From NCBI GenBank assembly GCA_039680175.1, contig JBDKTO010000117.1, positions 47,278 through 111,277 of the forward strand: a stretch of 64,000 nt of DNA, written 5' to 3'. A program made the translations under genes and the position numbers. The stretch is from Veillonellales bacterium (GTDB lineage Bacteria; Bacillota; Negativicutes; JAAYSF01). Under the pieces are notes generated by a model. It did not search any database. It was given only the letters and a program-made list of their open reading frames with translations, and was not told the origin of the DNA. Positions 2,009 to 59,771 of this stretch are shown in pieces; position 1 is the first letter of the stretch; every line of letters begins with the position of its first letter.

Positions 2009-2899
2009 ATGAGAATGGATAATTGGCAATTAAAGCGTGAGTCAGTGTGCGCTATTATAATCTCTTATGATGGTGGAAATACAATTATTGAAACTATAAA
2101 TGCAATTAGAGATCAAGTTGACTATATAATAATCATAGATAATAATTCTAATACTTGGACTAAGGAAGTTTTAAGATTATTTTCTGATGATGAAAATATT
2201 GAAATAATTTATAATAGTGATAATTTTGGAATTGCATACGCATTAAACCAAGGAGTTTTATTTTCTTATCAACGTGGTTTTAAATGGGTGCTAACAATGG
2301 ATCAAGATAGCATAGCCGAGGAAAACATGGTTTCTGAAATGCTAAATTGTGCATTGATTTGCCAAGATAACGTAGTTTCTATATCGCCTACCATTGTATG
2401 TAATGACGAAAAATCAAGCGAGTTCTTTATGACGATGTCCCCAAAATATGAAGAACGATTAACGGTTATAACTTCTGGGAACTTGGTTAAAACGAAGATG
2501 TATGAAATGATTGGTGGTTATAATGAGAATTTATTTATTGATTCTGTAGATTTCGACTTCTGTTTGCGTTTGCAAAAGAGTGGGTATAAAATAGCAAGAT
2601 GTACTACTGCACGGTTATTCCATTCATTAGGAAGAACTGAAAAGATGAATATACTGGGCATAAACATATCAATAATTGTTCATTCACCACTAAGAAAGTA
2701 TTATATTATGCGTAATCATATATATATGCTTAAAAGATATTTTGTATCATTTCCTATATTTTGTATAAAACAGCATATTGGTGTTCTGTTTTTGATAATT
2801 AAAATTATACTTTTCGAAAAAGCAAAAATGCAAAGTTTGAAATATATATTTATAGGTTTATTCCATGGTTTAAATAATAGATACGGTATTTATAGATAA
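2009..2899 (+). CDS. Glycosyltransferase family 2 (rhamnosyltransferase-like)
   Basis: N-terminal GT-A fold signature (IIIDNNS, DQD-type acidic motif, TMDQD). 296 aa. Lies in the polysaccharide cluster. Confidence 0.6.
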   Translation: MRMDNWQLKRESVCAIIISYDGGNTIIETINAIRDQVDYIIIIDNNSNTWTKEVLRLFSDDENIEIIYNSDNFGIAYALNQGVLFSYQRGFKWVLTMDQDSIAEENMVSEMLNCALICQDNVVSISPTIVCNDEKSSEFFMTMSPKYEERLTVITSGNLVKTKMYEMIGGYNENLFIDSVDFDFCLRLQKSGYKIARCTTARLFHSLGRTEKMNILGINISIIVHSPLRKYYIMRNHIYMLKRYFVSFPIFCIKQHIGVLFLIIKIILFEKAKMQSLKYIFIGLFHGLNNRYGIYR

Positions 2900-2918
2900 A
2901 TATATTGGAGAAAACATA

Positions 2919-3731
2919 ATGAAAAATTATTACTTTATTTGTGTTAATTTTAATAATGCACATTTTACGATAAAGTTTGTTGAAAGCATTAATCGTTTAA
3001 AAATCAATTCTGGTAATATTCATATTATTATAGTTGATAATGATTCTACAGAAGAGGATTATAAAAATTTAGTTGAATCATTTGAATCAGTCAATAATAT
3101 CAATTTGTTAAGAAATAAAGAAAATGTTGGATATTTTAAAGCACTAAACATTGGTATTTGCAGTGTTGATGATAAAGATAATAGTTTTTTTATCATTGGT
3201 AATAATGATATCCAGTTTAAGGATGATTTTCTTATTAAGTTAGACCAAATTGTATACAATAATGATGTTTTAGCAATAGCGCCAAATATAATAACAGCAA
3301 ATGGTTATCATCAAAACCCACACTGTGTTACCAGAGTATCAACTTTCAGGAAAATGGCTTATCGACTATATTTTACTAATTATTATTTAGGACGGTTTTT
3401 GTATTGGTTAGCTACAAAGCACAAAAAAATAAAAGGGAATAAGGACAATGCATTGTATGACAAGCATTGCTATATCTATATGGGAATAGGTGCGAGTTAT
3501 GTTTTAACAGAACATTTCTTTAAGTTTTATACGAAACTTGACGACCGAGTGTTCTTGTGGGGAGAGGAAGCGCTACTCGCAGGTCAATTAAGTGCCGTAG
3601 GAGGGAAGTTACTTTATAATCCTAATATAATTGTATATCATGCTGAAAATAGTAGCGTAAAAAAAATACCGTCTAGAGAGACATATGAAATTACTAGAAA
3701 ATCTTATAAAATTTATTCTAAGTATTTGTAG
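2919..3731 (+). CDS. Glycosyltransferase family 2
   Basis: IIVDNDS and GNND-type motifs typical of GT-A enzymes. 270 aa. Tightly packed in the same cluster. Confidence 0.55.
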   Translation: MKNYYFICVNFNNAHFTIKFVESINRLKINSGNIHIIIVDNDSTEEDYKNLVESFESVNNINLLRNKENVGYFKALNIGICSVDDKDNSFFIIGNNDIQFKDDFLIKLDQIVYNNDVLAIAPNIITANGYHQNPHCVTRVSTFRKMAYRLYFTNYYLGRFLYWLATKHKKIKGNKDNALYDKHCYIYMGIGASYVLTEHFFKFYTKLDDRVFLWGEEALLAGQLSAVGGKLLYNPNIIVYHAENSSVKKIPSRETYEITRKSYKIYSKYL

Positions 3732-8078: not shown

Positions 8079-9209
8079 TTGATGAATAAAATGAGGGTAA
8101 TGACTATAGTTGGGACACGACCTGAAATAATCAGGTTATCTGAGGTTATTCGAGCTTGTGATAGATACTTTGATCATATTTTAGTACACACGGGACAGAA
8201 CTGGGACTATAGTTTGAATGATGTATTTTTTAAAGAGCTTGAATTAAGAGAGCCAGATCATTATCTAAATGCCGTTGGAGAGCATTTGGGTGATACTATG
8301 GGCAATATTATTGGGAAGTCCTATGAAATACTATCAAAAGAAAAGCCGGATGCTTTACTTATTCTCGGGGATACAAATTCTGCGCTAAGTGCAATATCAG
8401 CTAAACGTCTAAAAATACCAATATTTCATATGGAAGCAGGCAATCGGTGTTTTGATCAAAACGTACCTGAAGAAATAAATAGAAAGATTGTGGATCATAT
8501 ATCGGATGTTAACTTACCATATACGGAACATAGCAGAAGATATTTACTATCCGAAGGTATAAGAAAAGAGCATATTTATGTTACAGGTTCACCTATGACT
8601 GAAGTATTACACAAGAATATGCATAAGATAGAGCAGAGTAAAATATTAAAAGAACTTGGCTTAGAAACAGGTGAATATATTTTAGTTTCTGCCCATAGAG
8701 AGGAAAATATTGATAATGAGAAAAATTTTTTCTCACTAATGAATGCTATTAATGAGATCGCTGAGAAATATCAAATGCCGGTAATTTATTCTACTCACCC
8801 AAGAAGCAAAAACACGATTGAAAAAAGAAGGTTTAAATTCCATCCTTTAGTTAGAAATCTAAAACCCTTTGGTTTTTTTGATTATAATCAACTTCAGGTT
8901 AATGCTTATTGTGTTCTTTCTGATAGCGGAACAGTTCCTGAAGAAGCGTCAATATTAGGGTTCCCTGCTGTATCCATTAGAACTTCCACAGAACGCCCGG
9001 AAGCATTGGATAAAGGGGCAATTATTCTTGGCGGAATAAAGAAAGAGGATGTATTACAGTCAGTTGAACTATGTAGAAGTATGTGGGAAAACAAGGAGCA
9101 AGTTCTCCCGGTCACAGACTATATAGATACTAATGTGTCAGTAAAGGTAATCAAAATAATTCAAAGCTATACAAAGATAGTGAATAGAGTAATATGGGCA
9201 AAAGAATAA
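8079..9209 (+). CDS. fnlC: UDP-N-acetylglucosamine 2-epimerase, non-hydrolysing (FnlC/CapG/WbjD)
   Basis: N-terminal MTIVGTRPEIIRL and the overall 376-aa length are typical of the WecB/CapG family. It completes the three-gene L-FucNAc pathway. Confidence 0.8.
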   Translation: MMNKMRVMTIVGTRPEIIRLSEVIRACDRYFDHILVHTGQNWDYSLNDVFFKELELREPDHYLNAVGEHLGDTMGNIIGKSYEILSKEKPDALLILGDTNSALSAISAKRLKIPIFHMEAGNRCFDQNVPEEINRKIVDHISDVNLPYTEHSRRYLLSEGIRKEHIYVTGSPMTEVLHKNMHKIEQSKILKELGLETGEYILVSAHREENIDNEKNFFSLMNAINEIAEKYQMPVIYSTHPRSKNTIEKRRFKFHPLVRNLKPFGFFDYNQLQVNAYCVLSDSGTVPEEASILGFPAVSIRTSTERPEALDKGAIILGGIKKEDVLQSVELCRSMWENKEQVLPVTDYIDTNVSVKVIKIIQSYTKIVNRVIWAKE

Positions 9210-9447
9210 GCTTATCTGAGGGTTTTGTATTATTCGCGGAGTGGGTTTATCCCGATGTAGCCGCTAACTTCCTTTGACCATGCCGTGTTCAGCGGTTTTG
9301 TCCATCACAGGCTAAAATTGCTCTCTTGCATTGTCACTTACCCCGGTATATAATTCCCAGTAAATAACTGGTGCCGGGGTGAAATAGTAAAGCCACGCTG
9401 CGAGTGCCCTGAATAAGTTCTCGTAACGTGGCTGACTACAAATAACA

Positions 9448-9588
9448 ATGGTCATACTATCACGTTATGAGATAAAGTTCAATCCAAATCACATATTTTT
9501 TGTTACCAGTAAGGATTTTCCCATCTGCCCTTGTTGCGGTAAAACGCTTTCCGGCTATGACCATCATCCTCGCATGGCTCGGCTCTGA
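9448..9588 (+). other. Small ORF with a CPCCG-type zinc-ribbon motif; possible remnant of a transposase N-terminus (coordinates approximate)
   Basis: 46-codon ORF MVILSRYEIKFNPNHIFFVTSKDFPICPCCGKTLSGYDHHPRMARL at the start of the repeat junkyard. The family is not identified. Confidence 0.2.
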
Positions 9589-9669
9589 TGTGGTATCAAG
9601 GTTCAGTTTCTTGCGGAAGCAGTGGGACGCTCATTTTGCTCCGTCTATGATAAGATATTTATCAGGCTG

Positions 9670-11022
9670 TTATCGAAAAGCAGCTGGATGAGTTGAAAAA
9701 GATCGCTGCGATTGTGTTGACTCGGTAAACATAGATAGCTTTTCCACTGCATACAGCGGTAGGCTTAGCAGCCAATCTTCCTTTTTATAATCGGCCATTG
9801 ATGTGCGTATCGACAGTTTGGGCCGGAATTTTTCATAATACGTTTTTAGACTCTTTGCCTTTAAATTTGTTTCAGCCTTGACTTCGATGGGAATGACGTT
9901 ACTGCCATTATCCGCTGCAAAGTCGATTTCCGCAGTACCGCGGTTATTTGTCCAGTAATATGTGTCCAGTCCTTTGATCGTTTTTAGCTGTTGCAATACG
10001 TATTGTTCGGTAAGCGCACCTTTGAATTCCTTAAAAAGTTCGTTACCATCCAAAAGGGTGCTTTGATTAAGGCGTACCATGCAAGAAAGCAGTCCTACAT
10101 CCAACAGAAACAGCTTAAAGGCTTTCACATCTTCATAAGCCTTTAGTGGAACAGCCGGTGCAGTCACACGATGTACTTTATGCACCAGGCCGCAGTCGGT
10201 CAGCCAGAGCAGTGCCAATTCGTATTCCTTGGCTCTGGCGCCATTTCTGATCAGTCCATAGATAAATTTTTTATTCTCTTTGGCGAGCTGAGCGGGGATA
10301 CTGTTCCAGAGCATTCTAATTCTGGGTACGGTTTCATTAGGCGCGTGTTTGGAAAAGTCCTGCTCGTAAGCTGCAAGAATGCGCTGTTGTATCTCGCGTG
10401 CTTCGTTAAAATCTTTATTTTCGGAAAAATGCAGTACCGCTTCCGGCATTCCACCAACATAGTAATAATATTTGAGAATGTCTATATATGTCTGTCTGAA
10501 GGCAGTTACCATGTCAAAGTCGCCATGCTGCAGCAGCTCTGCATACTGTTCATGTCCCATTGCCATCAAAAATTCAGTGAAACTGAGCGGGTATAAATCA
10601 AGGAATTCCACTTTACCGACAGGAAAAGATGTACCGCCATGCAGTGCCACACCCAACAGGGATCCGGCGCATATGATCTGATATTCCGGGGCATTCTCAT
10701 TAAAGTATTTCAGAGAAGTCAGCGCTTGCGGCACTTCTTGTATTTCATCAAAAATCAGCAGTGTATTGGCAGGGTCAATTTTTTGGCCGGAATAAAGTTC
10801 CAGTCCGGTTACAATGCGTCCGATATCCAAGTCGGATGAAAACAGATCCTTCATCCGCCGATTGTTGTCAAAGCTGATATAAACAGTTTTAGCAAAAGCA
10901 AGTTTTCCGAACTCTTTCATTAGCCAGGTTTTTCCAACTTGTCTTGCTCCACGGATAATCAGCGGTTTTTTATTTCGTTTTGCTTTCCACTTAGTAAGCT
11001 CTTCCATTGCTGTTCTATACAT
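9670..11022 (-). CDS. AAA+ ATPase (DUF4143-type ATP-binding protein)
   Basis: Walker A GARQVGKT near the N-terminus and Walker B LLIFDEIQ. 450 aa, with the C-terminal DUF4143-like region typical of this widespread family. Confidence 0.7.
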   Translation of the reverse strand: MYRTAMEELTKWKAKRNKKPLIIRGARQVGKTWLMKEFGKLAFAKTVYISFDNNRRMKDLFSSDLDIGRIVTGLELYSGQKIDPANTLLIFDEIQEVPQALTSLKYFNENAPEYQIICAGSLLGVALHGGTSFPVGKVEFLDLYPLSFTEFLMAMGHEQYAELLQHGDFDMVTAFRQTYIDILKYYYYVGGMPEAVLHFSENKDFNEAREIQQRILAAYEQDFSKHAPNETVPRIRMLWNSIPAQLAKENKKFIYGLIRNGARAKEYELALLWLTDCGLVHKVHRVTAPAVPLKAYEDVKAFKLFLLDVGLLSCMVRLNQSTLLDGNELFKEFKGALTEQYVLQQLKTIKGLDTYYWTNNRGTAEIDFAADNGSNVIPIEVKAETNLKAKSLKTYYEKFRPKLSIRTSMADYKKEDWLLSLPLYAVEKLSMFTESTQSQRSFSTHPAAFR

Positions 11023-11258
11023 GATGCATCACTCCATAAGAACAGTATAACATGGCAAAAACAAAAAATACAACGAAAATATGTATAATAAGAACATTTT
11101 TTCGAACTAAAAAAATAAAGCAGAGATGTAAGTCCATCAAATGCAGTGCCATTAAGATGCCACCTTGATAATGACAGCTCTAAAAGGCACACAAGGCAGC
11201 AACGAGAGATTGCTTCGCTGCGCTCGCAATGACAGGTTGAAGAATCAGGGACGTTTTT

Positions 11259-11483
11259 TTGCTTCTTTTTCCCACAGGCTGCCGGTTGTTTTGTCCTGAA
11301 TTTGTCCGTGAATTTTGGTATGCTGCGGCGCTGGGTAACAGTAGGGGGGATCATTGTTATAATAAGGCCGAAGGCAGCAGAGAAACGGCAAAGCGGCTGT
11401 TGGACATGGGAATGTCGGTTTCTGATATTACCAAAGCAACTGGTTTGTCTGAGACGGAAGTCCATCAAATGCAGTGCCATTAA
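11259..11483 (+). pseudogene. Orphan C-terminal module of the Rpn-family nuclease (the same ~45 aa as the end of the 13230..14066 protein)
   Basis: The translation ends ...GDHCYNKAEGSRETAKRLLDMGMSVSDITKATGLSETEVHQMQCH. The C-terminus of the Rpn-like protein reads GNRETAKRLLDMGMSVSDIAKATGLSETEVRQLQCH. A third copy lies at ~15650-15745. Confidence 0.5.
11265..11380 (+). repeat. Repeated promoter-like leader module, copy 1. Other copies lie at ~14862-14910 (partial), ~15555-15655 and ~15890-15995.
   Basis: Near-identical stretch caggctgccggttgttttg...gaattttggtatgctgcggcgctgggtaaca...cattgttataataagg containing a TATAAT box. It precedes orphan copies of the Rpn C-terminal module. Confidence 0.5.
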
Positions 11484-11619
11484 GACGCCACCTTGATAAT
11501 GACAGCTCTAAAAGGCACACAAGGCAGCAACGAGAGATTGCTTCGCTGCGCTCGCAATGACAGGTTGAAGAATCAGGGACGTTTTTTTGCTTCTTTTGAA
11601 AATAGGGGAGCCTATTCCT

Positions 11620-11730
11620 TTCGTTAGGCTGCCGGTTGTGTTGCTTGCTGGGTTTAGGGTATAATAAAAGTGGAATATCGTATTGTATACTCAGCATAAT
11701 GGAAGAGGCAGGTGGGTTTTGCGTGAAACC
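11620..11730 (+). repeat. Second repeated leader module (TATAAT-containing), copy 1. Copy 2 lies at ~14995-15105.
   Basis: aggctgccggttgtgttgcttgctgggtttagggtataataaaagtggaatatcgtattgtatactcagcataatggaagaggcaggtgggttttgcgtgaaacc is repeated with few mismatches upstream of both copies of the small MEEAGGF protein gene. Confidence 0.5.
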
Positions 11731-11950
11731 GACAGTAGAATTTGCCAAGGCTATGGGGAAAACCAGAGAAAAGGTAAATGCAGCCGCTCAAAATGGTATT
11801 ATATTAGAGAAATCCCCGAGAATTCGGTTTCGGAGTGAAAGTGAGAAAGCGGCACTGTGCCGATCTGTTATTTTTACTGTTGAACAAGCGAAGCGATCCG
11901 GGAGGCTGCATAAATCGGGAAAAGGTTATGTACTATCATGGAAGAACTAA
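11636..11950 (+). CDS. Small hypothetical protein (copy 1 of a duplicated gene). The true start is probably the internal MEEAGGF near 11699.
   Basis: Roughly 90% identical at protein level to ORF 15041..15322. The function is unknown. Confidence 0.45.
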   Translation: MCCLLGLGYNKSGISYCILSIMEEAGGFCVKPTVEFAKAMGKTREKVNAAAQNGIILEKSPRIRFRSESEKAALCRSVIFTVEQAKRSGRLHKSGKGYVLSWKN

Positions 11951-12530
11951 AAAAGCGGCTAAAAGGATGTATAAATATTCAAGATAGCTTACAACAAATG
12001 ACAGCCGCCGGTATAGTGAGCCAGGCTTTTAAAAAATATAATCTTATTCCGGCTGTCGTAGGAGGGCTGGCGGTGGAATTTTATACATTGTCTAATTACC
12101 TAACCAGGGATATAGATATGGTGATTCCCGGAGACCAATATGCAAATGAGGTAATGATCGAACTCGGCTTTAGTAAAAGGGGCAGTACTTGGATTTTTTC
12201 GGACGATCCTACCATAATGTTGACTTTCCCGGAAGTCCTTTAGGTGGTTCGTGGGATAAAGTTTTACCGGTTGAACTTGACTCCGGTGACATTGTCTATG
12301 TTATTTCGATTGAAGATATTATAGTGGATCGAATCTTAGCTGTGAAATATTGGGGCGATTCGGAAGAGTGGGCGCAATATATGATGGCGGCTCATTATGA
12401 CGACATAGATTGGGAGTATTGTTTTAAAAGGGCAGATAAAGAGCTTTGCTTGGATGGTTTAGAAAAAATGAAAAAATGGTCAGCAGAACACCGTGAGGCA
12501 TTCTATTGCGGGCAAGTAGAGAAAAAATGA
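11938..12530 (+). pseudogene. Nucleotidyltransferase-like gene disrupted by a frameshift near 12220-12245
   Basis: Two overlapping ORFs, 11938..12243 and 12189..12530, read continuously if a 1-nt frameshift is allowed (..LTFPEVL* versus ..DFPGSPLGGSWDKV). The first part carries a GG..DID minimal-nucleotidyltransferase motif (VVGGLAVEF...TRDIDMV). Confidence 0.5.
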
Positions 12531-12560
12531 GTAAAATATGTAATTGACAGGAGATAATAC

Positions 12561-13106
12561 ATGGATAATATCAGTCTAAGAGATTTAAAAAAACATTTAA
12601 CGACAGTGCCCTTTGATGAAATGGTCGCGGATATAATCACTTTATATAAGGACATTCCGGCAGTCAGAGAATATTATCTCATAAAGTTATGTCCTGCTGC
12701 CGAAATTACTCTATTGGAAAAATACAAAAAAATTATTGAAAATGAGTTTTTTCCTAATAGAGGTTTTGGCAAGGCGCGAGCTTCAGTTGTCAGAAAAGCA
12801 ATTAGTGACTTCAAAAAAATTGCCAAGTCGCCATACAATATAGTTGATTTATTATTTTTCCACGTTTCAATAGGAGTAGACTTTACCAATTCATATGGCG
12901 ATATTGACGATGTATTTTACGCAAGCTTAGGAAACAGTTTTGAACAGGCATTAAAATATGGCTTTAAACATGGTATAGCCGACGAAATTAGGAAAAGCGC
13001 AAAAATAGTACTAGAAAAATGCCAAGGATTCGGCTGGGGGTTTAGCGACGTTATTGATGATATTTATTATACATATTACGATTCTTATGAAGAAGATAAC
13101 GATTAA
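12561..13106 (+). CDS. Hypothetical protein (AT-rich, acidic C-terminus)
   Basis: 181 aa with no recognisable motif. It is followed directly by a copy of the GGGACGTACATTTTGCT hairpin. Confidence 0.5.
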   Translation: MDNISLRDLKKHLTTVPFDEMVADIITLYKDIPAVREYYLIKLCPAAEITLLEKYKKIIENEFFPNRGFGKARASVVRKAISDFKKIAKSPYNIVDLLFFHVSIGVDFTNSYGDIDDVFYASLGNSFEQALKYGFKHGIADEIRKSAKIVLEKCQGFGWGFSDVIDDIYYTYYDSYEEDND

Positions 13107-13113
13107 GGTTTAG

Positions 13114-13140
13114 AAAGCATAGGGACGTATATTTTGCTTC
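13114..13140 (+). terminator. Conserved hairpin aagcaTAGGGACGTAtATTTTGCTT (member of a 5-copy family)
   Basis: Stem aagca/tgctt with a conserved loop, placed immediately 3' of a + strand stop codon and followed by a U-rich run. Confidence 0.4.
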
Positions 13141-13229
13141 TCTTATGGGGACAATTATCTATCGTCAGAAGAGGAGACTGTATTTTTTTCAAATATCTGG
13201 TATACTAAAAATACAAGGGAGGAATACGA

Positions 13230-14066
13230 ATGGAATGGAATCTGAACCGAATCAACGACTATTTGTTTAAGTGGGTATTTGGCCGTGAGGAAAATAAAGA
13301 AATTTTGCTCAGCTTTCTGAACTCCGTATTGTCTCCCAGCGGGCAGGACGAATTAGCGGACATTATGCTGGCGGAACGGGAATTGGATCCGGAGCATATT
13401 GCCGATAAAATGTCGCGACTGGATATTTTAGGCAAGGGAAACGACGGCAGCATCATTAATATCGAAGTGCAAATTGCCAATCAGTATGACATAGATAAAC
13501 GGACACTGTATTACTGGGCAAAGCTGTACCAGGGACAGATGCAGAAAGGGCAGAGGTATAAAGAACTCTCCCGCACCATTACCGTTAATGTACTAAACTT
13601 TGCTTTTCTGCCGAAGGAAGAGAAGTATCATAGTATGTTTGCCCTGTATGAGACGGAGACAGGGTACCGATTAAACCGGGATTTGGAGATTCATTTTTTG
13701 GAACTGTCAAAATGGAAACAGCTGCAGGTGCCGCCGCGAACGCGGCTGGATAAGTGGCTGATGTATCTATCGAATGCCAATCCGGAGGAAATGGAGGAGA
13801 TAGCTATGAGCGAACCAGCGATTCGCAAGGCGTTAAGTGCAGAGGAAATCTTTTTAAAGCAGGATAAAGAAAGATATTTGTACGAGATGAGAGAGAAAGC
13901 CATATTGGATCATATTTCCGCCATTAGCGGTGCGGAAGAAAAAGGAAGAGCCGAAGGAAACAGGGAAACGGCAAAGCGGCTATTGGACATGGGAATGTCG
14001 GTTTCTGATATTGCCAAAGCAACGGGGTTGTCTGAGACGGAAGTCCGTCAGCTGCAGTGTCATTGA
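13230..14066 (+). CDS. Rpn-family recombination-promoting nuclease / putative transposase (PD-(D/E)XK; YhgA-like)
   Basis: 278 aa. The N-terminal region MEWNLNRINDYLFKWVFGREENKEILLSFLNSVL...LDILGKGNDGSIINIEVQ is characteristic of the Rpn/YhgA-like (TIGR01784-type) family. Good RBS (agggagg). Fragments of its C-terminus are scattered nearby. Confidence 0.7.
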   Translation: MEWNLNRINDYLFKWVFGREENKEILLSFLNSVLSPSGQDELADIMLAERELDPEHIADKMSRLDILGKGNDGSIINIEVQIANQYDIDKRTLYYWAKLYQGQMQKGQRYKELSRTITVNVLNFAFLPKEEKYHSMFALYETETGYRLNRDLEIHFLELSKWKQLQVPPRTRLDKWLMYLSNANPEEMEEIAMSEPAIRKALSAEEIFLKQDKERYLYEMREKAILDHISAISGAEEKGRAEGNRETAKRLLDMGMSVSDIAKATGLSETEVRQLQCH

Positions 14067-14244
14067 AACGTCGCTGTTGGAATCATCGGGGGCGGGCGCT
14101 TTTTTGCTTCGTTTGTGATCCAAAGAAACTATTTTTTCGTCAGGCTGCCGGTTTTGTGCTTAGCCGGTCAGGGTATAGCGGAAGCAGATGAAGAAGAAGG
14201 GGTATGGCAGGCATTACTGCGGATCGCCGGAGAGTGAGCAGGGG

Positions 14245-14345
14245 AACACACACCCCGCCCTAACGGGCACCCCCACTCTGTATAATTCGACTGGCGAAAC
14301 TCAAAAAGCAGAGTTTCGAGTCTCATCTATCTTTCTAGAGGGGAT
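14245..14345 (+). repeat. MITE-like composite dispersed repeat with ACACCCCGCC / GGCGGGGTGT-type termini, copy 1
   Basis: acaccccgccctaacgggcacccccactctgtataattcgactggcgaaactcaaaaagcagagtttcgagtctcatctatctttctagagggga recurs at ~38408-38562, ~47850-47948 and ~50213-50460. Partial copies lie at ~25878-25930, ~41455-41580 and ~47606-47660. Confidence 0.6.
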
Positions 14346-14790
14346 TATGTGGGAAGCAGTGGGACGTTCTTTTTGCTCCGCCTATGATAAGATATTTATC
14401 AGGCCGTAAGCGAAAAGCAGCTGGATGAGTTGAAAAAGCTCGCTGCGATTGTGCTGACTCGGTAAACATGTATAGCTTCTCCACTGCATACAGCGGCAGG
14501 TTCAGCAGCCAATCTTCCTTTTTATAATCGGCCATTGATGCGCGTATCGATAGTTTGGGCCGGAATTTTTCATAATACGTTTTTAGACTCTTTGCCTTCA
14601 AATTTGTTTCGGCTTTGACTTCGATGGGGATGATTTCACTGCCATTATCCGCTGCAAAGCTTAAAGGCTTTCATATCTTCATAAGCCTTTAGTGGAACAG
14701 CCGGTGCAGTCACACGATGTACTTTATGCACCAGGCTGCAGTCGGTAACATAGTAATAATATTTGAGAATGTCTAAACAAAAAATACAAC
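14335..14790 (-). pseudogene. Decayed partial duplicate of the DUF4143 AAA+ ATPase gene
   Basis: Nucleotide stretches 14341-14640, 14641-14740 and 14741-14830 are near-identical to parts of 9590-11100, with internal deletions. The 88-aa ORF matches the ATPase C-terminus (KAKSLKTYYEKFRPKLSIR...). Confidence 0.65.
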
Positions 14791-15040
14791 GGAAATATGT
14801 ATAATACGTACATTTTTTCGAACTAAAAAATTTAAAGCAGTAGGGACGATTTCAGGCTGCCGGGGGTTTTGCCTCGGAATACCCGTGAATTTTGGTATGC
14901 TGTGGCGCTGGGGAAATCAAGAAAGAAATAACGCCCCTTCAAGCAACGGGGACGCTGTTTTTGTTTCTTGATTGATAGAGTATTTATTCTTTCGGCAGGC
15001 TGCCGGTTGTTTTGCTTGCCGGGTTTAGGGTATAATAAAA

Positions 15041-15322
15041 ATGGAATATCCGTATTGTATGTTCAGCATAATGGAAGAGGCAGGTGGGTTTTGCATGAAA
15101 CCGGCAATAGAGTTTGCAAAGGCTATTGGGAAAACCAGAGAAAAGGTAAATGCAGCAGCTCAAAATGGTATTATATTAGAGAAATCCCCAAGGGTTCGGT
15201 TTCGGAACGAAAGTGAGAAAGCGGCACTGTGCCGATCTGTTGTTTTTACTGTTGAACAAGCGAAGCGATCCGGGAGGCTGCATAAATCGGGAAAAGGTTA
15301 TGTATTATCATGGAAGAATTAA
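15041..15322 (+). CDS. Small hypothetical protein (copy 2 of a duplicated gene). It is followed by a truncated nucleotidyltransferase start (MEELKKRLKGCI*).
   Basis: Near-identical to 11636..11950. The downstream partner gene is truncated after 12 codons at ~15310-15348. Confidence 0.4.
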   Translation: MEYPYCMFSIMEEAGGFCMKPAIEFAKAIGKTREKVNAAAQNGIILEKSPRVRFRNESEKAALCRSVVFTVEQAKRSGRLHKSGKGYVLSWKN

Positions 15323-16017
15323 AAAAGCGGCTAAAAGGATGTATATAAAAAGCATAGGGACGTACATTTTGCTTCTCCTATAGAAATAATTATCTATCGA
15401 GACGGAAGTTCGTCAGATGCAGTGCCATTAAGACGCCACCTTGATAATGATAGCTCTAAAAGGCACACAAGGCAGCAACGAGAGATTGCTTCGCTGGCGC
15501 TCGCAATGACAGGCTGAAGAATCAGGGACATTCTTTACTCCTTTTATGTATGGTTCCCAGGCTGCCGGTTGTTTTGTTCTGAAATTGCCGGTGAATTCTG
15601 GTATGCTGCGGTGCCGGGTGACAATAGGTGGATCATTGTTATAATAAAGCCGAAGGCAGCAGGGAAACGGCAAAGCGGCTGCTGGACATGGGGATGTCGG
15701 TGTCTGATGTTGCCAAAGCAACGGGGTTGTCTTAGACGGAAGTTCGTCGATGCAGTGCCATTAAGACTCTGCTTGATAATGACAGCTTCTAAAAGGCACA
15801 AGGCAGCAACGAGAGATTGCTTCGCTGGCGCTCGCAATGACAGGCTGAAGAATCAGGGATGTTCCTTTTGTTTCCTCCATGTATGGTTTCCGCTTTTTTA
15901 CAGGCTGCCGGTTTTTTTGTCTGAATTTGTTCGTGAATTTTGGTATGCTGCGGTGTCGGGTGACAATAGGGTGGATCATTGTTATAATAAGGATAAAGAG
16001 GAAAAGAGGCGAAGCCT

Positions 16018-16452
16018 ATGGGTGCCAATCTGGCTGGAAAGAAGCGTAACGACAGGCTGCTGCAAGTATTAACCCCTTTTTTGTTGTCCAGAACGGAGAT
16101 TCAGTTTGCCTGGTTATTTGGATCGTATGCCACGGGGCGGAATACGGCATCCAGTGATATCGATATTGCTATTTTTGTTAACGATCTGAGACTATTGGGT
16201 GATACGGATTGGTATCTTGGCTTGAAATCAGATTTAATGGCTTTGACACATAAAGAAATCGATTTGATACTTTTGAACAATGCGAAGCCGTTGATGAAAC
16301 ATGCGGCTAATATGAAAAAAATAGTTTTACTGGCTCGTGATCCGTTGTTTGAGGCGGAATATGCGTTATCGGTCATTAAAGAATATAATGATGTGCGGTA
16401 TTGGGCGCAGCTTTCCCGGCAGCGCTTACTAGGAGGAGCGAAGCATGGTTAA
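16018..16452 (+). CDS. mntA: Minimal nucleotidyltransferase (MNT) antitoxin of a HepT/MNT type VII toxin-antitoxin pair
   Basis: GS-x10-DID motif (FGSYATGRNTASSDIDIAIF). 144 aa. Overlaps the downstream HEPN gene by 8 nt. Confidence 0.7.
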   Translation: MGANLAGKKRNDRLLQVLTPFLLSRTEIQFAWLFGSYATGRNTASSDIDIAIFVNDLRLLGDTDWYLGLKSDLMALTHKEIDLILLNNAKPLMKHAANMKKIVLLARDPLFEAEYALSVIKEYNDVRYWAQLSRQRLLGGAKHG

Positions 16453-16858
16453 GCATGATATTGTAGAACGGAAGTTGTGCCAAATTCAAAAATCTTTGGA
16501 AAAGATTTTGCTTTACCGTTCTTTGTCTTATGAGGAGTTTGTTAATCACGCAGTTGCCAGAGATGTGGTCGAATACAATCTTTTTATTATTATTAATTCC
16601 ATGATTGATATTGTAAATCATATTGTGACTGATGATGAATTGGGAGAAGTAGACATGCTGGCAGATGGATTTCGTATTTTAGAGACTTATGGATATTGGG
16701 ACAAAGAGCAAGCAAGCATATATACTAAAATGGTTGCTTTTCGTAATATGATTGCTCATCAGTATGCTGATATTGGCGCTCATGTAGTGTATGATGTTTT
16801 GCAGCATAAACTTGAAGGTGTTGAAAATTTCAACCGGCAGATTAGTGATAAATTGTAG
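16445..16858 (+). CDS. hepT: HepT-like HEPN toxin (DUF86)
   Basis: R-x4-H-x-Y motif present (FRNMIAHQY). 137 aa. Translationally coupled to the MNT gene. Confidence 0.7.
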   Translation: MVKHDIVERKLCQIQKSLEKILLYRSLSYEEFVNHAVARDVVEYNLFIIINSMIDIVNHIVTDDELGEVDMLADGFRILETYGYWDKEQASIYTKMVAFRNMIAHQYADIGAHVVYDVLQHKLEGVENFNRQISDKL

Positions 16859-16940
16859 ACGCGGTGAGGAGGGAAGCAGTGGGGACGTTATTCTCGCTTC
16901 GCTTGCGATGGGGAGTGTTGCTGCTCACAGGTAAAATCGA

Positions 16941-16968
16941 AGCGTGAGGGACGTACATTTTGCTCCTT
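16941..16968 (+). terminator. Conserved hairpin aagcgTGAGGGACGTACATTTTGCT (family member). A degenerate second copy lies at ~16875-16905.
   Basis: Same conserved loop GGGACGTACATTTT. Lies 3' of hepT. Confidence 0.35.
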
Positions 16969-17008
16969 CTATTTGTAAGGAAACCTCATTTCTTACAGGA
17001 GGCGTGTC

Positions 17009-17212
17009 ATGACCGAATATGATGTAACGATAAGCAGTGAAGAACAATTCGTTTTACAAGCGTTGGATAGTATTGTTAACAAAGTAGACCAAGAGTATAA
17101 TAAAAAAGAACATGTGTCCCTTTCCGACTTAAACGGCAGGCTGAAAATGGATGAGGTCATGGTCCTTAATTCGGCTTCAAACCAGCCAAAGAAGTTGTCA
17201 AAAGCGATTTAA
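17009..17212 (+). CDS. Small hypothetical protein
   Basis: 67 aa. Good RBS (aggagg) 8 nt upstream. Confidence 0.35.
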   Translation: MTEYDVTISSEEQFVLQALDSIVNKVDQEYNKKEHVSLSDLNGRLKMDEVMVLNSASNQPKKLSKAI

Positions 17213-17239
17213 GCAGAAGCAGAGGGAGAAGAGGGAGTT

Positions 17240-18115
17240 ATGGCGATAAAAAAGGGAATTATTTTGGCCGGGGGGTCGGGTACCCGGCTGTATCCGGTTA
17301 CGAAGTCGATTAGTAAGCAGTTGATGCCTGTATTTGACAAACCGATGGTATATTACCCGCTGTCGACGCTAATGCTGGCTGGGATTCAGGATATTCTGGT
17401 CATTACGACGCCTCAGGATCAGGCAAGTTTTCAACAGTTATTGGGGTCAGGCGATCAGTGGGGGATTAATTTGTCGTATGCGGTCCAGCCTAGCCCGGAT
17501 GGTTTGGCTCAGGCATTTATTATTGGGGAGTCCTTTATTGATGGGGCCGGATGCGCTTTGGTTTTGGGGGATAATATTTTTTATGGGTACGGATTTAGCG
17601 AAAAGCTGCAAAAGGCGAGGCAGCAGGAGCAGGGGGCTACGGTTTTTGCTTATTGGGTGAAGGACCCGGAACGGTATGGGGTGGTAGAGTTTGATGCAGC
17701 CGGAAAAGCTGTGAGCCTGGCAGAAAAACCGGTTAAGCCGAAGTCCAATTATGCGGTTACAGGGTTGTATTTTTATGACAGCCAAGTGGTGGAATTGGCG
17801 AAAATGGTGAAACCGTCTACCCGGGGGGAACTGGAAATCACTGATTTAAACCGGCTGTATTTGGAGCGGGATACACTTCGGGTAGAGACGCTGGGCCGGG
17901 GTTATGCCTGGCTGGATACGGGAACACATGAGTCTCTGCTGCAGGCTTCCGATTATATCGCGACGATTCAGGAGCGGCAGGGCCTGATGGTGGCCTGCCC
18001 GGAGGAAATTGCTTACCGAATGGGGTATATTTCCCGGAAGCAGCTGGCAGCTCAGGGTGATGTGATGAAGAAGAACGGCTATGGCAGGTATTTGCTGCGG
18101 ATTGCCGGGGAGTGA
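17240..18115 (+). CDS. rfbA: Glucose-1-phosphate thymidylyltransferase
   Basis: N-terminus [17 protein letters not shown] is the classic RmlA motif. 291 aa. Confidence 0.9.
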
Positions 18116-18153
18116 GCGGGGGACGGACAAAGGGGAATTTTAGCTGATAAGGT

Positions 18154-20852: not shown

Positions 20853-21605
20853 ATGCTTTATTTTTTAAAATTTGCCGCCAGCTTTTTGTTGCCGCCGGGT
20901 ATTTTTATTTTAATGCTGCTGCTGGTCGTTTTCTTGCTTAAAAAACGCCGGGGGTATGTACATAAAGGGCTGTGCTTGATTATTGTTCTTTTTTATATTT
21001 TTTCCACCGGCTATGTGGGAGATTGTTTGCTCCAGACACTGGAGGCAAGGCATGTGCCGCCGGCAGAGGTTTCCGGTGACGTGATCATCATGCTGGGCGG
21101 CGGGGCTACTTTGGATACGCCGGATATAGACGGGCCGGGGCATTTGTCCGGCAGTGCGGCCAATCGGCTGCTGACGGCCGCCAGGCTGCAGCGCAGGCTG
21201 GGGGTGCCGGTTATTGTATCCGGTGGTCAGGTGTTTGAGGATTCCGGCCGGGAAGCGGTTATTGCCCGGCGGATTTTACTGGGACTGGGGATACCGGAAG
21301 AACAGATCCTGGTGGAGGATACCAGCCTGAACACTACCCAGAATGCGGTGAATGTAAAGAAAATTCTGGGCGAAAGGGGATTCCGGCAGCCGATTCTGGT
21401 GACGTCGGCGTTTCATATGGAACGGTCGATATTGAATTTTGCCAAACAAGGGGTAAGGGCAGAGGCTTATCCGGCGGATTATCTGGTCAGTACAACCCCC
21501 GGGCTGTATGCGAATAATTTTGTTCCGTCGGCGGACGGACTGCGGAGTTCGGCGATTTTTTTCCGGGAATGGCTGGGAATCTGGGCGCTGCGGGTGAGAC
21601 AATAG
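20853..21605 (+). CDS. YdcF/SanA-like DUF218 family membrane-associated protein
   Basis: N-terminal TM segment plus a DUF218-like core (PVIVSGG...ILVTSAFHMERS). 250 aa. Confidence 0.6.
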   Translation: MLYFLKFAASFLLPPGIFILMLLLVVFLLKKRRGYVHKGLCLIIVLFYIFSTGYVGDCLLQTLEARHVPPAEVSGDVIIMLGGGATLDTPDIDGPGHLSGSAANRLLTAARLQRRLGVPVIVSGGQVFEDSGREAVIARRILLGLGIPEEQILVEDTSLNTTQNAVNVKKILGERGFRQPILVTSAFHMERSILNFAKQGVRAEAYPADYLVSTTPGLYANNFVPSADGLRSSAIFFREWLGIWALRVRQ

Positions 21606-21610
21606 GCGCA

Positions 21611-21644
21611 AAAAGCAGGGGGGACGTACATTTTGCTTTTTAGT
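21611..21644 (+). terminator. Conserved hairpin aaagcaGGGGGGACGTACATTTTGCTTTTT (family member), 3' of the rml-DUF218 operon
   Basis: Stem aaagca/tgcttt with the conserved loop and a T-run. Plausible intrinsic terminator. Confidence 0.5.
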
Positions 21645-21889
21645 CGCTTAATGTGCCCGGCGTCAGGTTAAATGAAGGGATAATTTACGGTTAGGCACAG
21701 CGGGAGAAGCTGTTCTTTTTATTTTGACTGAACAGGAAATATTTATTAAATAGAGAATTTCTATAAGTATAATCTGCTAAAATTTTCTTGCGTTGTCATT
21801 GTAAGGCTGAGAAAGTAATTTTAGGCGTACAGGTTTTTCTTTCTTGCTAATGACAGCAGCCACTTCAATGAAAAGGAGCTGCGAATTGA

Positions 21890-38407: not shown

Positions 38408-38562
38408 ACACACCCCGCCCTGCGGACGATTTGCCTGTTCTGTATAATTCGGCTAACGAAACCAAAAGATGGTTTCGAGTCTTATCTATTTTTCTAATGG
38501 GGAATAGGCGGTCTTAAAATCCCCTCTAAAAAGAGGGGTGGCGCGTTAGCGACGGGGTGTGT
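38408..38562 (+). repeat. MITE-like composite dispersed repeat, full-length copy with ACACACCCCGCC...GGCGGGGTGTGT termini
   Basis: Contains internal hairpins (cgaaaccaaaagatggtttcg; cccctctaaaaagagggg). Same family as 14245-14345. Confidence 0.6.
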
Positions 38563-41316: not shown

Positions 41317-41644
41317 GGGAGAGGACGGCGCGGGGATCGAAGGACTTTGCGCGGTCCACCGGAGTGTCATTGCGAGCGGCAGCGAAGCAATCTCCTTGCT
41401 GCTAATGCTAAAATTTTTTGTCAGCGAAACCGTCCCCGGTGATATTTGGTAAAATCCCCTCTAGAAAGATAAGTGAGACTCGAAACCACGCCTTTTGGTT
41501 TCGTCAGCCGAACTTATGCAAAGCTAGAAAAGATGCGAAACTCTGCTTTTTGAGTTTCGCTAGTCGAATTATGCAATGAATTCGTAACATCTAGCTATAT
41601 TATCGCATATAGTATCCTATCCCAGGCAAAGGGGGTAGGATATT

Positions 41645-43035: not shown

Positions 43036-43124
43036 TGTCATCGCGAGGCGTCAGCCGCGGCGATCTCAAAGGAGGAAAGAGGCGATAGAGGCCGGGAGAT
43101 TGCTTCGCTGCCGCTCGCAATTAC
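43036..43124. repeat. ~90-bp dispersed element with terminal inverted repeats TGTCATYGCGAG / CTCGCAATKACA. This is the long version. Other copies lie at 46783-46877 and 59504-59593.
   Basis: tgtcatcgcgaggcgtcagccgcggcgatctcaaa...gagattgcttcgctgccgctcgcaattaca. Short half-copies (gagattgcttcgctg[cg]gctcgcaatgacag) lie at ~11203-11236, ~11527-11560, ~15478-15513, ~15808-15843, ~18822-18867, ~25959-26003, ~41356-41395 and ~45300-45345. Confidence 0.65.
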
Positions 43125-43215
43125 AAATCCAAGTCCTCAGTCCCCAGTCCCCAGTGCCAGGTGCCAAGTTCCAAGTCCCAAGTCCCCAGTTCCAAGTTCC
43201 AAGTGCCAGTCTCTG
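43125..43215. repeat. Heptanucleotide tandem repeat array, consensus CCMRGTN (STRR-like)
   Basis: ccaagtc ctcagtc cccagtc cccagtg ccaggtg ccaagtt ccaagtc ccaagtc cccagtt ccaagtt ccaagtg: 11-12 contiguous units of period 7. Confidence 0.75.
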
Positions 43216-46724: not shown

Positions 46725-46934
46725 AGGGGCTGTGAGCCTAGGGCGATGAGCCATGGGCTATTGGTTAGGCGCTTTCTCAGAGTTGTCATTTGCGAGGCGT
46801 CAGCCGCGGCGATCTCAAAACGGCAAGCGGCAGCCTGGAACCGGGAGATTGCTTCGCTGCGGCTCGCAATGACAGAATTTAGAGCCGAATGCCTTAAGCC
46901 AACAGCCAATCGCCCCCAAAAGGAGGTAACCGCT

Positions 46935-47849: not shown

Positions 47850-47948
47850 GAATCCCCTCTAGAAAGATAGATGAGACTCGAAACCGCGCCTTTCGGTTTC
47901 GTTAGTCGAATTATACAGAGTGGGGGTGGCGCGTAGCGACGGGGTGTG
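47850..47948 (-). repeat. MITE-like composite repeat (inverted orientation relative to the 14245 copy)
   Basis: cccctctagaaagatagatgagactcgaaaccgcgcctttcggtttcgttagtcgaattatacagagtgggggtggcgcgtagcgacggggtgtgt. Confidence 0.55.
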
Positions 47949-48049
47949 TAAATCTCTGCCCGCTTTGCAGGATTTACGTCTGCCTTTTACGAATAATGGA
48001 ATGATAACAAGCGCCGCTCTTGGTGGTGGTTGTAAAGGAGTGGCAGTGA

Positions 48050-50212: not shown

Positions 50213-50460
50213 GGCGGGGGACGTAACACACCCCGCCCTACGGGAACCCCCACTCTGTATAATTCGACTTACGAAACCGAAAGGCGCGGGTTCGAGTCTC
50301 ATCTATCTTTCTAGAGGGGACTACACCCCCTCTACACTGTATAGTTCGACTGACGAAACCGAAGTGCGTAATTTGGAGTTTTATTTATCTTTCTAAGGGG
50401 AATAGGCAGGGGGATAAATCCCCTCTAAAAAGAGGGGTGGCGCGAAGCGACGGGGTGTGT
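50213..50460 (+). repeat. Tandem/nested copies of the MITE-like composite repeat
   Basis: Two consecutive ..cactctgtataattcgact.acgaaacc...tctatctttcta..gggga units, then the cccctctaaaaagaggggtggcgcgaagcgacggggtgtgt end. Confidence 0.55.
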
Positions 50461-59492: not shown

Positions 59493-59771
59493 CAGTCTCC
59501 TGCTTGTCATCGCGAGGCGTAAGCCGCGGCGATCTCAAAGCCGGAGAGGCGTCAGGAAGAGCGAGATTGCTTCGCTGCCGCTCGCAATGACAGAATATTC
59601 ATTCAAGTCCCCACTGCCAAGTCCCAAGAGCTCTTTACCGCCTTATTCCAAGTGCCAATTACCAAGTCCCATCTTCCCGTTCCCCCCCCAAGTTCCAAGT
59701 CCCCATTACCAAGTTCCGTTTCCCTCGTCCCCCCATTTCCAAGTGCCAAAAAAAAAATCCCCGTTCCCTCT

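Follow-up and report, generated by a model that had tools for sequence, protein, structure and literature searches.

A stretch of 64,000 nucleotides (hereafter the window) from an uncultured Veillonellales bacterium of the class Negativicutes, carried on contig JBDKTO010000117.1 of a metagenome-assembled genome (MAG), includes at 9.2-17.2 kb a small, fast-evolving defence and toxin-antitoxin islet wedged between a variable polysaccharide cassette and the conserved rml genes. The islet holds a DUF4143 ATPase gene, an open reading frame (ORF) for 93 amino acids (aa) with a DUF6036-like nucleotidyltransferase gene, a DUF6155 gene, an intact gene for an Rpn recombination-promoting nuclease, and the MntA/HepT pair. 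It is probably the decaying product of a block duplication, a further duplication of ~330 bp and deletions, in which two orphan copies of the 3' end of rpn persist as non-functional relics. A preliminary description, made from the sequence alone, had called the region a junkyard of decayed duplicates at a cassette boundary, and in this it was right.

Repeat structure of the islet

When the region was compared with itself, as the preliminary description had proposed, matches of 29-483 nt with 74-100% identity were obtained (E values of 1e-4 to 1e-160), and the repeats discussed here fall at 80-100% identity and E values of 1e-8 to 1e-160. All three repeats listed in that description (a decayed copy of the ATPase gene, a duplicated leader and small-protein module, and recurring copies of the Rpn C-terminus) were present at about their assigned coordinates, far above chance. 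Successive collinear matches are spaced by 4737, 4546, 4291, 3716, 3372, 2235 and 1365 bp. Since the spacing shrinks stepwise, the matches describe one block present twice, with nested deletions in the second copy.

The features of the region are collected in Table 1. Its sequence would be explained by a single block of ~4.7 kb present in two diverged tandem versions (86-100% identity), with an ancestral order of DUF4143 ATPase gene (minus strand), 93-aa ORF, nucleotidyltransferase-like gene, possibly the DUF6155 gene, rpn and mntA-hepT. Block 2 would have been pared down by successive deletions that took most of the DUF4143 gene, the nucleotidyltransferase-like gene and nearly all of rpn; mntA-hepT (16018-16858) follows it directly. 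Inside each block there is in addition a tandem repeat of ~330 bp, in which 11123-11269 corresponds to 11451-11597 (98%) and 15400-15647 to 15734-15990 (85%). The rmlA fragment embedded between the blocks suggests an earlier arrangement in which an rmlA gene immediately preceded block 2.

Table 1. Features of the islet and of its associated repeats (positions in the window).
Feature	Position	Strand	Content, similarity or support
Block 1	9615-14186		DUF4143 gene (-); last 37 nt of rpn, tail, leader, orphan 1, tail; leader2, small ORF, frameshifted nucleotidyltransferase-like gene; DUF6155 gene; rpn-upstream segment; rpn
Intact DUF4143/AAA_14 ATPase gene with both flanks	9615-11123 (coding sequence 9670-11022)	-	Pfam DUF4143 1.1e-39, AAA_14 6.6e-29
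Last 37 nt of rpn and 110-nt tail (junction J3)	11123-11269	+	repetitive extragenic palindromic (REP)-like palindrome and GGGACG hairpin motif; 98% to 11451-11597, 74-92% to 15399-15545
Leader copy 1	11270-11366	+	CAGGCTGCCGGTTGTTTTG motif and predicted promoter GTAACA-17-TGTTATAAT
Orphan 1 (rpn codons 241-278 and stop)	11367-11483	+	89.3% to 13950-14070; tblastn 87%; open frame
Tail copy	11484-11597	+	REP-like palindrome and GGGACG hairpin; repeat match
Leader2 and small ORF, copy 1	11599-11950	+	TTGTTT-18-TATAAT read by eye; 104 aa from TTG start
DUF6036-like nucleotidyltransferase pseudogene	11938-12530	+	1-nt deletion at ~12217 relative to intact 198-aa ORF of L004
DUF6155 gene	12561-13106	+	Pfam 4.4e-21
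rpn-upstream segment with GGGACG hairpin motif	13111-13164	+	87% to 15346-15399
Intact rpn, putative RpnL/RpnS gene-within-gene toxin-antitoxin	13230-14066	+	PDDEXK_2, TIGR01784
3' flank of intact rpn and decayed leader2	14067-14186	+	74-76% to 11577-11663 and 14950-15034
Between the blocks			rmlA 3' fragment, then dispersed ~100-bp repeat copy
rmlA 3'-end fragment, 59 nt	14187-14245	+	86.7% to 18064-18123, E 5e-13
Dispersed intergenic repeat, ~100 bp	14248-14347(+), 50226-50323, 47851-47949(-), 41453-41523(-), 41520-41575(-), 38439-38506		88% for 50226-50323
Block 2	14352-15990		DUF4143 remnant; truncated leader; leader2, 93-aa ORF, 12 nucleotidyltransferase-like codons; rpn-upstream segment joined to last 37 nt of rpn; tail, leader, orphan 2, tail, leader
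DUF4143 remnant	14352-14840	-	four aligned pieces of the intact gene, three internal deletions
Truncated leader	14853-14915	+	5' 63 nt only, without -10 element; 83% to 11275-11338
Leader2, intact 93-aa ORF (15041-15322) and first 12 nucleotidyltransferase-like codons	14985-15345	+	98.7% to L004
Deleted rpn: upstream segment joined directly to last 37 nt (J2 at 15399), then tail	15346-15545	+	
Leader copy 2	15555-15648	+	GTGACA-16-TATAAT with TG
Orphan 2 (rpn codons 241-278)	15649-15764	+	89.7%; TAG at codon 269, 1-nt deletion in codon 274
Tail copy	15765-15896	+	repeat match
Leader copy 3 and mntA ribosome-binding site	15897-16017	+	GTGACA-17-TATAAT with TG
mntA and hepT	16018-16452 and 16445-16858	+	type VII toxin-antitoxin pair, NCBIfam equivalogs
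Hairpin motif (G)AAGCA-nn-GGGACGTnnnTTT-TGCTTC, conserved loop	9624, 11248, 11576, 13122, 14361, 14949, 15357, 15856, 16882, 16948, 21621		
REP-like imperfect palindrome GAGATTGCTTCGCTG(N)CGCTCGCAATGACA	11203-11235, 11531-11563, 15479-15512, 15810-15843, 41365-41402(-), 43093-43125, 46842-46875, 59563-59593		

The ATPase encoded in block 1 matched the PADLOC candidate system PDC-S01 (PDLC04786, E 1.4e-189, residues 1-431 against positions 3-434 of a 439-position model), and a defence function is hence a candidate one. Its decayed copy, previously placed at 14335-14830, does carry internal deletions, and its limits were refined as given in Table 1. The remnant aligns with 9615-9922 (92.5%), 10112-10200 (97.8%), 10456-10484 (100%) and 11059-11123 (92.4%) of the intact gene and its flanks, and the three deletions between these pieces (9923-10111, 10201-10455 and 10485-11058 in intact-gene coordinates) have removed the start codon and the P-loop.

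The segments 11565-11973 and 14938-15345, comprising leader2, the small ORF and the start of the next gene, are 90% identical, and the reported duplication of a leader and small-protein module was therefore upheld. The nucleotidyltransferase-like gene of block 2 ends after exactly 12 codons (15310-15345, read from the sequence), as had been stated. The frameshift reported at ~12230 in block 1 lies instead at ~12217, and is also present in L001, a Logan contig from run SRR15035647. That a nucleotidyltransferase-like gene follows each module holds in the sense of a sub-threshold DUF6036 match (E 0.0023, below the Pfam cut-off) and a GG...DID motif only. The small ORF matched no Pfam or NCBIfam family, and a PDB sequence search with Rpn and the nucleotidyltransferase-like protein gave no informative match.

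An independent MAG contig, L004, assigned to a "Phycisphaerales" bin and probably mis-binned, aligns with stretches of block 2 at 96-99% identity and with stretches of block 1 at 94-97%. It was the only true relative among 16 matches to the leader pattern (an 18-mer) in a search of genome contigs, a number estimated to be about chance level, and neither the leader nor a 31-mer from the 93-aa gene had a match when each was used to scan metagenomes. L004 encodes a 93-aa product identical to that of block 2 and has the DUF4143 deletion junction 10484/11059 and, twice, the rpn deletion junction, as in the window. It retains DUF4143 segments lost from block 2 of the window, as well as the intact 198-aa nucleotidyltransferase-like ORF, and has no orphans. 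The retained segments, together with the common junctions, thus point to stepwise decay.

The rpn gene, its orphan fragments and their leaders

The preliminary description had recognised an intact Rpn/YhgA-like PD-(D/E)XK nuclease at 13230-14066, and family matches confirm it: PDDEXK_2 (PF12784) is covered over model positions 2-228 of 229 (E 3.7e-79), and TIGR01784 is matched with 256.5 bits (E 3.9e-76, cut-off 52.1). Residues D10, D65, E79, Q81 and R91 are invariant in an alignment of 15 Rpn sequences. By motif, rather than by a direct alignment with RpnA, these residues correspond to D11, D63, E82, Q84 and R94 of RpnA, mutation of which abolishes or alters the in vivo effects of that protein (PMC5350276). 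The closest relatives are from Sporomusa ovata and S. carbonis (81%), Desulfitobacterium hafniense (78%) and Methylomusa (70%).

The rpn genes are gene-within-gene toxin-antitoxin systems, in which the internal product RpnS blocks the nuclease RpnL (Zhong et al. 2023, PMC10400941). RpnS is a three-helix bundle whose long helix 1 forms the dimer interface, with four-residue repeats setting specificity (PMC10400941). In the window's rpn, candidate internal starts for RpnS are M193, which is invariant and has GGAGGAG 6 nt upstream, and the nearly invariant M220. The AlphaFold model was poor over the full length of the protein (mean predicted local distance difference test score, pLDDT, 55.8), and the C-terminal 60 residues alone were used; the modelled C-terminus consists of a long helix at 185-253 followed by helices at 258-265 and 269-277, with block-mean pLDDT of 73-90 over 221-278. 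The 15 aligned sequences differ in length by 4-20 residues through repeats of the VEGR/AEGR/EGKL/QGIA type at residues 240-245. Rpn is accordingly predicted to end in a three-helix, or helix-turn-helix (HTH), module that varies in length by four-residue repeats, for which a precomputed match to HTH_Rpn_C (PF27070) was marked weak. Like the known Rpn/YhgA-like toxin-antitoxin and anti-phage systems (PMC5350276; PMC10400941), the window's gene combines PDDEXK_2, the invariant residues, a three-helix C-terminus, repeat variation and a defence context. Unlike the E. coli genes, which belong to PF04754, it falls in the PF12784/TIGR01784 branch, and its RpnS product is putative.

The tail of Rpn recurs twice as orphans, as had been claimed, at the nucleotide identities given in Table 1, though each comprises 38 codons (residues 241-278) rather than ~45. 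Amino-acid identity to the intact tail is 87% and 79%, and the MAG annotation places a 74-aa hypothetical protein (ABFC84_18685) over orphan 1. Two further fragments, at 11123 and 15399, which the preliminary description did not mention, hold only the last 37 nt of rpn. A repeated leader precedes both orphans, as described; the third leader (15897-15990), also assigned to an orphan, precedes mntA. The leader carries a predicted promoter, GTGACA-16/17-TATAAT with an upstream TG, that fits 10-11 of 12 consensus positions. The same leader forms the promoter region of mntA(-hepT) both in the window and in L004, and is hence not specific to the orphans.

The two orphans have an identical leader-to-GCCGAAGG junction, at which TGTTATAATAA and a G or A are followed directly by GCCGAAGGCAGCAG. 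Compared with the intact rpn, both have GGC AGC for GGA AAC, ATG for CTG, TGC for TGT and TAA for TGA, and in both the 3' flank differs from the intact rpn flank by an extra REP-like insertion bracketed by AATGACAG. The common junction, changes and flank indicate that the orphans have one origin, from an rpn allele that is now deleted. The view that the Rpn 3' module had been repeatedly copied and shuffled was therefore overstated, and a single duplication of ~330 bp, later carried along with the larger block, would suffice.

Three alternative identities for parts of these segments were discarded. The leader is not diverged rpn coding sequence, as its in-frame translation is unlike Rpn residues 200-240. 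An antisense-RNA role does not fit the orphans, which have the same orientation as rpn. The tails fold no better than shuffled sequences (z 0.0 and +2.2), and hence are neither a stable structured RNA nor a clear terminator.

Copies of the RpnS-encoding part have been described before. Duplication downstream of rpn gives rise to standalone rpnSs genes such as ypaA, which deletion or fusion can remove again; rpn arrays form by tandem direct duplication, and rpn genes cluster with defence genes (PMC10400941). The orphans resemble the E. coli standalone rpnSs genes (ypaA/rpnESs and rpnCSs; DUF4351) in being loss-prone local duplicates of the C-terminal antitoxin part downstream of rpn, with a junction in the four-residue-repeat zone that PMC10400941 highlights. 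They differ in that they start at residue 241, lacking M193, M220 and most of helix 1, in that one is disrupted, and in that they lie behind the MntA/HepT promoter, the rpn that formerly preceded them being reduced to 37 nt. A pattern of duplicating and decaying rpn islets is thus already known for rpn genes, and the window is an ordinary instance of it in which no new mechanism is demonstrated. The local twist is that rpn relics have been captured behind a toxin-antitoxin promoter at the seam of a polysaccharide locus. The locus provides a non-enterobacterial natural example of local rpn duplication with C-terminal antitoxin pieces among defence genes.

In Sporomusa ovata, the source of the closest cultured homologue, the rpn locus (contig L019, 5353-12205) lies inside a glycosylation and flagellar-modification cluster, next to two Y1 transposase genes, an MNT-type nucleotidyltransferase gene and Uma2 endonuclease genes; no orphans and no leaders were found there. 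Sporomusa-like Negativicutes may repeatedly carry rpn-containing islets within their surface-glycan loci.

Order of events and competing explanations

Three novel junctions lie within the last 117 nt of rpn. J1, where the leader meets each orphan, is at rpn codon 241, where homologues differ by four-residue (12-nt) repeats. J2 (15399) and J3 (11123) start at the same rpn base, 33 nt before the end of the stop codon, in the centre of the palindrome GTCT/GAGAC (the stroke marks the break). From this arrangement we infer an order of events. Before rpn was lost from block 2, a segment made up of rpn codons 241-278, the 3' flank and the mntA promoter would have been duplicated in tandem over ~330 bp, giving the order rpn, tail, leader, C-terminal fragment, tail, leader, mntA, with the 38-codon tail behind a second mntA promoter. 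Once most of rpn is deleted, this predicted order is the one seen in block 2. A copy of the unit, already rearranged, would also have been placed in block 1. That C-terminal pieces alone survive may have a selective basis, as loss of the toxin part with the antitoxin kept would be viable and the reverse would not.

Four findings weigh against this reconstruction. The common breakpoint of J2 and J3 is not accounted for by simple independent deletion, and would require either one event that was copied onward or a hot spot for breakage. Secondly, orphans 1 and 2 differ by seven synonymous and three non-synonymous changes (ratio of non-synonymous to synonymous change, pN/pS, 0.13; binomial P 0.002), which is not the pattern of neutral dead DNA; this bias would be due to concerted evolution with rpn copies that were then intact, or to import from other alleles, and the orphans were possibly once translated. 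That both leaders stand before unrelated genes is a hint that modules have been exchanged where cassettes meet. Finally, the full tandem order is found on no single independent contig: the Logan contigs from SRR15035647 break at repeats, and no independent contig crosses 14347-14352 or the array at 11.1-11.6 kb. Block duplication followed by the ~330-bp duplication and deletions nevertheless remains the probable history, and the alternatives were weighed against it.

A hot spot, possibly related to the nuclease, is suggested above all by the crowding of breakpoints into the final 117 nt of rpn, so that some role of Rpn in the rearrangements is possible. In its full form, in which the resident Rpn breaks DNA near its own 3' end and RecA-independent joining yields the orphans, the 37-nt fragments and the block duplications, this explanation is unlikely. 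It would fit the coincidence of J2 and J3 and the little or no homology at the junctions, as read by eye. RecA-independent recombination increases when E. coli Rpn proteins are overexpressed (PMC5350276), and Zhong et al. (2023) speculate that RpnL may initiate the formation of rpnSs copies and rpn duplications (PMC10400941). However, RpnA has little or no sequence specificity in vitro (PMC5350276), and a fixed break site is not predicted from it. Many junctions in the region have no connection with rpn, among them those of the rmlA fragment and of the deletions in the DUF4143 and nucleotidyltransferase-like genes, and survivorship explains the bias towards C-terminal remnants without a nuclease. 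The repeat-zone junction and the three clustered breakpoints may be a guide for experiments on rpn diversification.

It is rather improbable that the tandem arrangement exists in no single genome and that the contig strings together alleles of co-existing strains. A metagenome-assembled source, differences of 2-14% between the blocks, which are typical of strain variants, the breaking of the SRR15035647 short-read contigs exactly at the repeats, and the different arrangement of the same modules in L004, also from public data, would all be expected of such an artefact. However, several joins were found independently. L001 is 100% identical over 11903-14342 and spans the end of block 1, linking rpn to the rmlA fragment and the latter to the dispersed repeat, and a second Logan contig, L018, is 100% identical over 15830-17914 and runs from the leader through mntA-hepT into rmlA. 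The two ends of L004 are non-identical DUF4143 copies (~93% by count over 196 aligned nt), which shows that tandem blocks exist in a second assembly, independently of that of the window; L004 itself was rejected as a circular or artefactual contig, given that its ends are not identical. Joining two alleles, moreover, cannot make a 328-bp tandem repeat together with common junctions.

If the orphans were working genes, they would be promoter-equipped standalone antitoxins or decoys of the RpnS type, comparable to E. coli ypaA/rpnESs, that buffer RpnL or incoming Rpn toxins. Each has a strong predicted promoter, the frame of orphan 1 is open, with a precomputed match to HTH_Rpn_C and an annotated product, divergence is biased to synonymous changes, and standalone rpnSs genes are documented (PMC10400941). 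This proposal is nonetheless quite improbable. The first ATG after the predicted transcription start is M254, which lacks a Shine-Dalgarno sequence and would give a product of 25 aa (helices 2 and 3). Of helix 1, the dimerisation and specificity element in RpnAS (PMC10400941), the last 13 residues remain, so that no copy offers a complete RpnS frame with its own start, ribosome-binding site and long helix 1. Orphan 2 has a stop codon and a frameshift, and the frame is hence neither intact in all copies nor conserved in relatives: the upstream in-frame extension into the leader differs between the two copies, and the fusion of leader and orphan, unique to the window's MAG, had no relative but itself among 5.8e9 database proteins and was absent from L004 and the S. 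ovata rpn locus. The orphans are best regarded as truncated relics, comparable to standalone rpnSs copies and non-functional or at best vestigial.

By analogy with pilS-type systems, the promoter-equipped C-terminal fragments could instead form a silent reservoir of partial cassettes that re-tunes the RpnL/RpnS surface by gene conversion with the intact rpn or provides decoy peptides, with the hairpin and promoter edges as the substrate for swapping defence cassettes within one strain or from strain to strain. We regard this as very doubtful; if it held, the synonymous excess between the orphans and the reused breakpoint would be footprints of exchange.

Nearly every module edge carries the hairpin motif (Table 1) followed by CAGGCTGCCGGTTGTTTTG. 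As compared with dinucleotide shuffles, the window has nine GGGACG motifs (0.73 expected), seven CAGGCTGCCGG motifs, six of them inside the region (0.03 expected), and four leader cores (0.00 expected). No covariation was seen in the hairpin stem, and the copy within 21590-21660 has a folding energy of -27.5 kcal/mol (z -4.1). The hairpin may be terminator-like or REP-like. We take the two motifs to be terminator-like and promoter modules whose duplicated copies supply the homology used in recombination, rather than a dedicated site.

A cassette-exchange system in which the hairpin AAGCA..GGGACGTnnnTTTTGCTTC followed by CAGGCTGCCGGTTGTTTTG is a recombination site for integron-like swapping of promoter-bearing cassettes is highly improbable: the placement of both motifs at module boundaries (10 and 6 copies in 8 kb against 0.7 and 0.03 expected window-wide) and of both leaders before different genes in the window and L004 would suit it, but no recombinase or integrase was found among the region ORFs scanned, the junctions lie at no fixed position inside the motif, the hairpin is found behind the rml operon as well (21621), as would befit a terminator-like or REP-like element, its stem lacks visible covariation, CAGGCTGCCGGTTGTTTTG contains the leader2 -35 element (read by eye, and not among the predicted promoter sites listed), and ordinary homologous recombination between the duplicated modules suffices. 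Short cassettes, many of them toxin-antitoxin genes, split by a recurring structured motif do recall integron arrays, whereas attC architecture is missing, each cassette comes with a promoter and the breakpoints occur at no fixed site. An integron was rejected, as no IntI or other recombinase was found among the region ORFs scanned (the rest of the window lay outside the scan) and the motif is a short AAGCA/TGCTT hairpin without the R''-L''...L'-R' arrangement; GTTAGGC was read in one of seven copies of the second (CAGGCTGCCGGTTGTTTTG) motif.

Setting, neighbouring genes and scattered motifs

The G+C content rises in steps along the window: it is 28-38% up to 9 kb, 38-46% within the region and ~50% from rmlA onward. 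Upstream lies a low-G+C cassette of glycosyltransferase and epimerase genes, the last of which is a wecB-type epimerase gene (8079-9209). Downstream, at ~50% G+C, are rmlA, further rml genes including that for dTDP-glucose 4,6-dehydratase, an ElyC-like gene and manC, and beyond these RecD2 and flagellar genes. The G+C step and the embedded rmlA 3' fragment agree with the earlier view that the region lies where the polysaccharide cassette meets the rml genes.

Junctions of enterobacterial O-antigen and capsule clusters collect gene remnants at the breakpoints of cassette swaps. The region is similar in lying at a G+C step between cassette and rml genes with an rmlA 3' fragment embedded in it, but its remnants are defence genes, not insertion sequences or H-repeats, and its host is a diderm member of the Negativicutes. 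With defence islands that contain orphan antitoxin remnants it has in common MntA/HepT, Rpn, the PDC-S01 ATPase, the nucleotidyltransferase-like pair, pseudogenes, and a content that differs between the window and L004. Unlike such islands, it lies in a surface-polysaccharide locus and not beside a mobile element, and no integrase or transposase was found in the region. The Pfam and NCBIfam scans of region ORFs gave no recombinase, integrase or transposase family among the ORFs that were scanned. Searches of plasmid and phage collections gave weak gene-level matches only, and the region matches no known plasmid or phage segment. With a defence islet at a recombination-prone polysaccharide seam, serotype switching and the turnover of defence genes may be coupled.

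The MntA/HepT pair matched NF047752 (85.5 bits) and NF047751 (98.6 bits; cut-off 60 for each), and the two genes overlap by 8 nt. Exact-protein look-ups with the products of rmlA, the 93-aa ORF, the DUF4143 gene, the 88-aa remnant and the 74-aa orphan ORF found none on record. On the reverse complement of L004 (~2333-3566), leader2 precedes a 109-aa MNT ORF, which is followed by a pair encoding a 96-aa MNT protein and a 111-aa HepT protein. L004 also has internally deleted mntA-hepT copies, and promoter modules there are common to unrelated cassettes.

No Rfam match was obtained for the region at E values up to 1 or for the whole window at the gathering score, and the leaders, tails and hairpins hence belong to no known RNA families. 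The REP-like palindrome in the orphan tails, bracketed by the direct repeat AATGACAG, is insertion-like relative to the intact rpn 3' flank, and three distant copies of it are preceded by GCCGCGGCGATCTCAAA. The dispersed ~100-bp repeat, which likewise had no Rfam match, holds an extended -10 box (TGTATAAT), a hairpin CGAAAC(C/T)...(G/A)GTTTCG with a compensatory change between copies, and a Shine-Dalgarno-like TCTAGAGGGGA, and may be a portable promoter and 5' untranslated region module.

Two stretches at the edges of the region complete the inventory. A 67-aa ORF (17009-17212) just 5' of rmlA is preceded by a strong Shine-Dalgarno sequence (AGGAGG), and gene calling on a Logan contig also picked it up; it has no Pfam, NCBIfam or PADLOC family. 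Between the wecB-type gene and the DUF4143 gene, 9210-9614 holds short ORFs only, such as a 46-aa ORF (9448-9588) with a CPCCG motif and no Pfam family, and this stretch may be another gene remnant.

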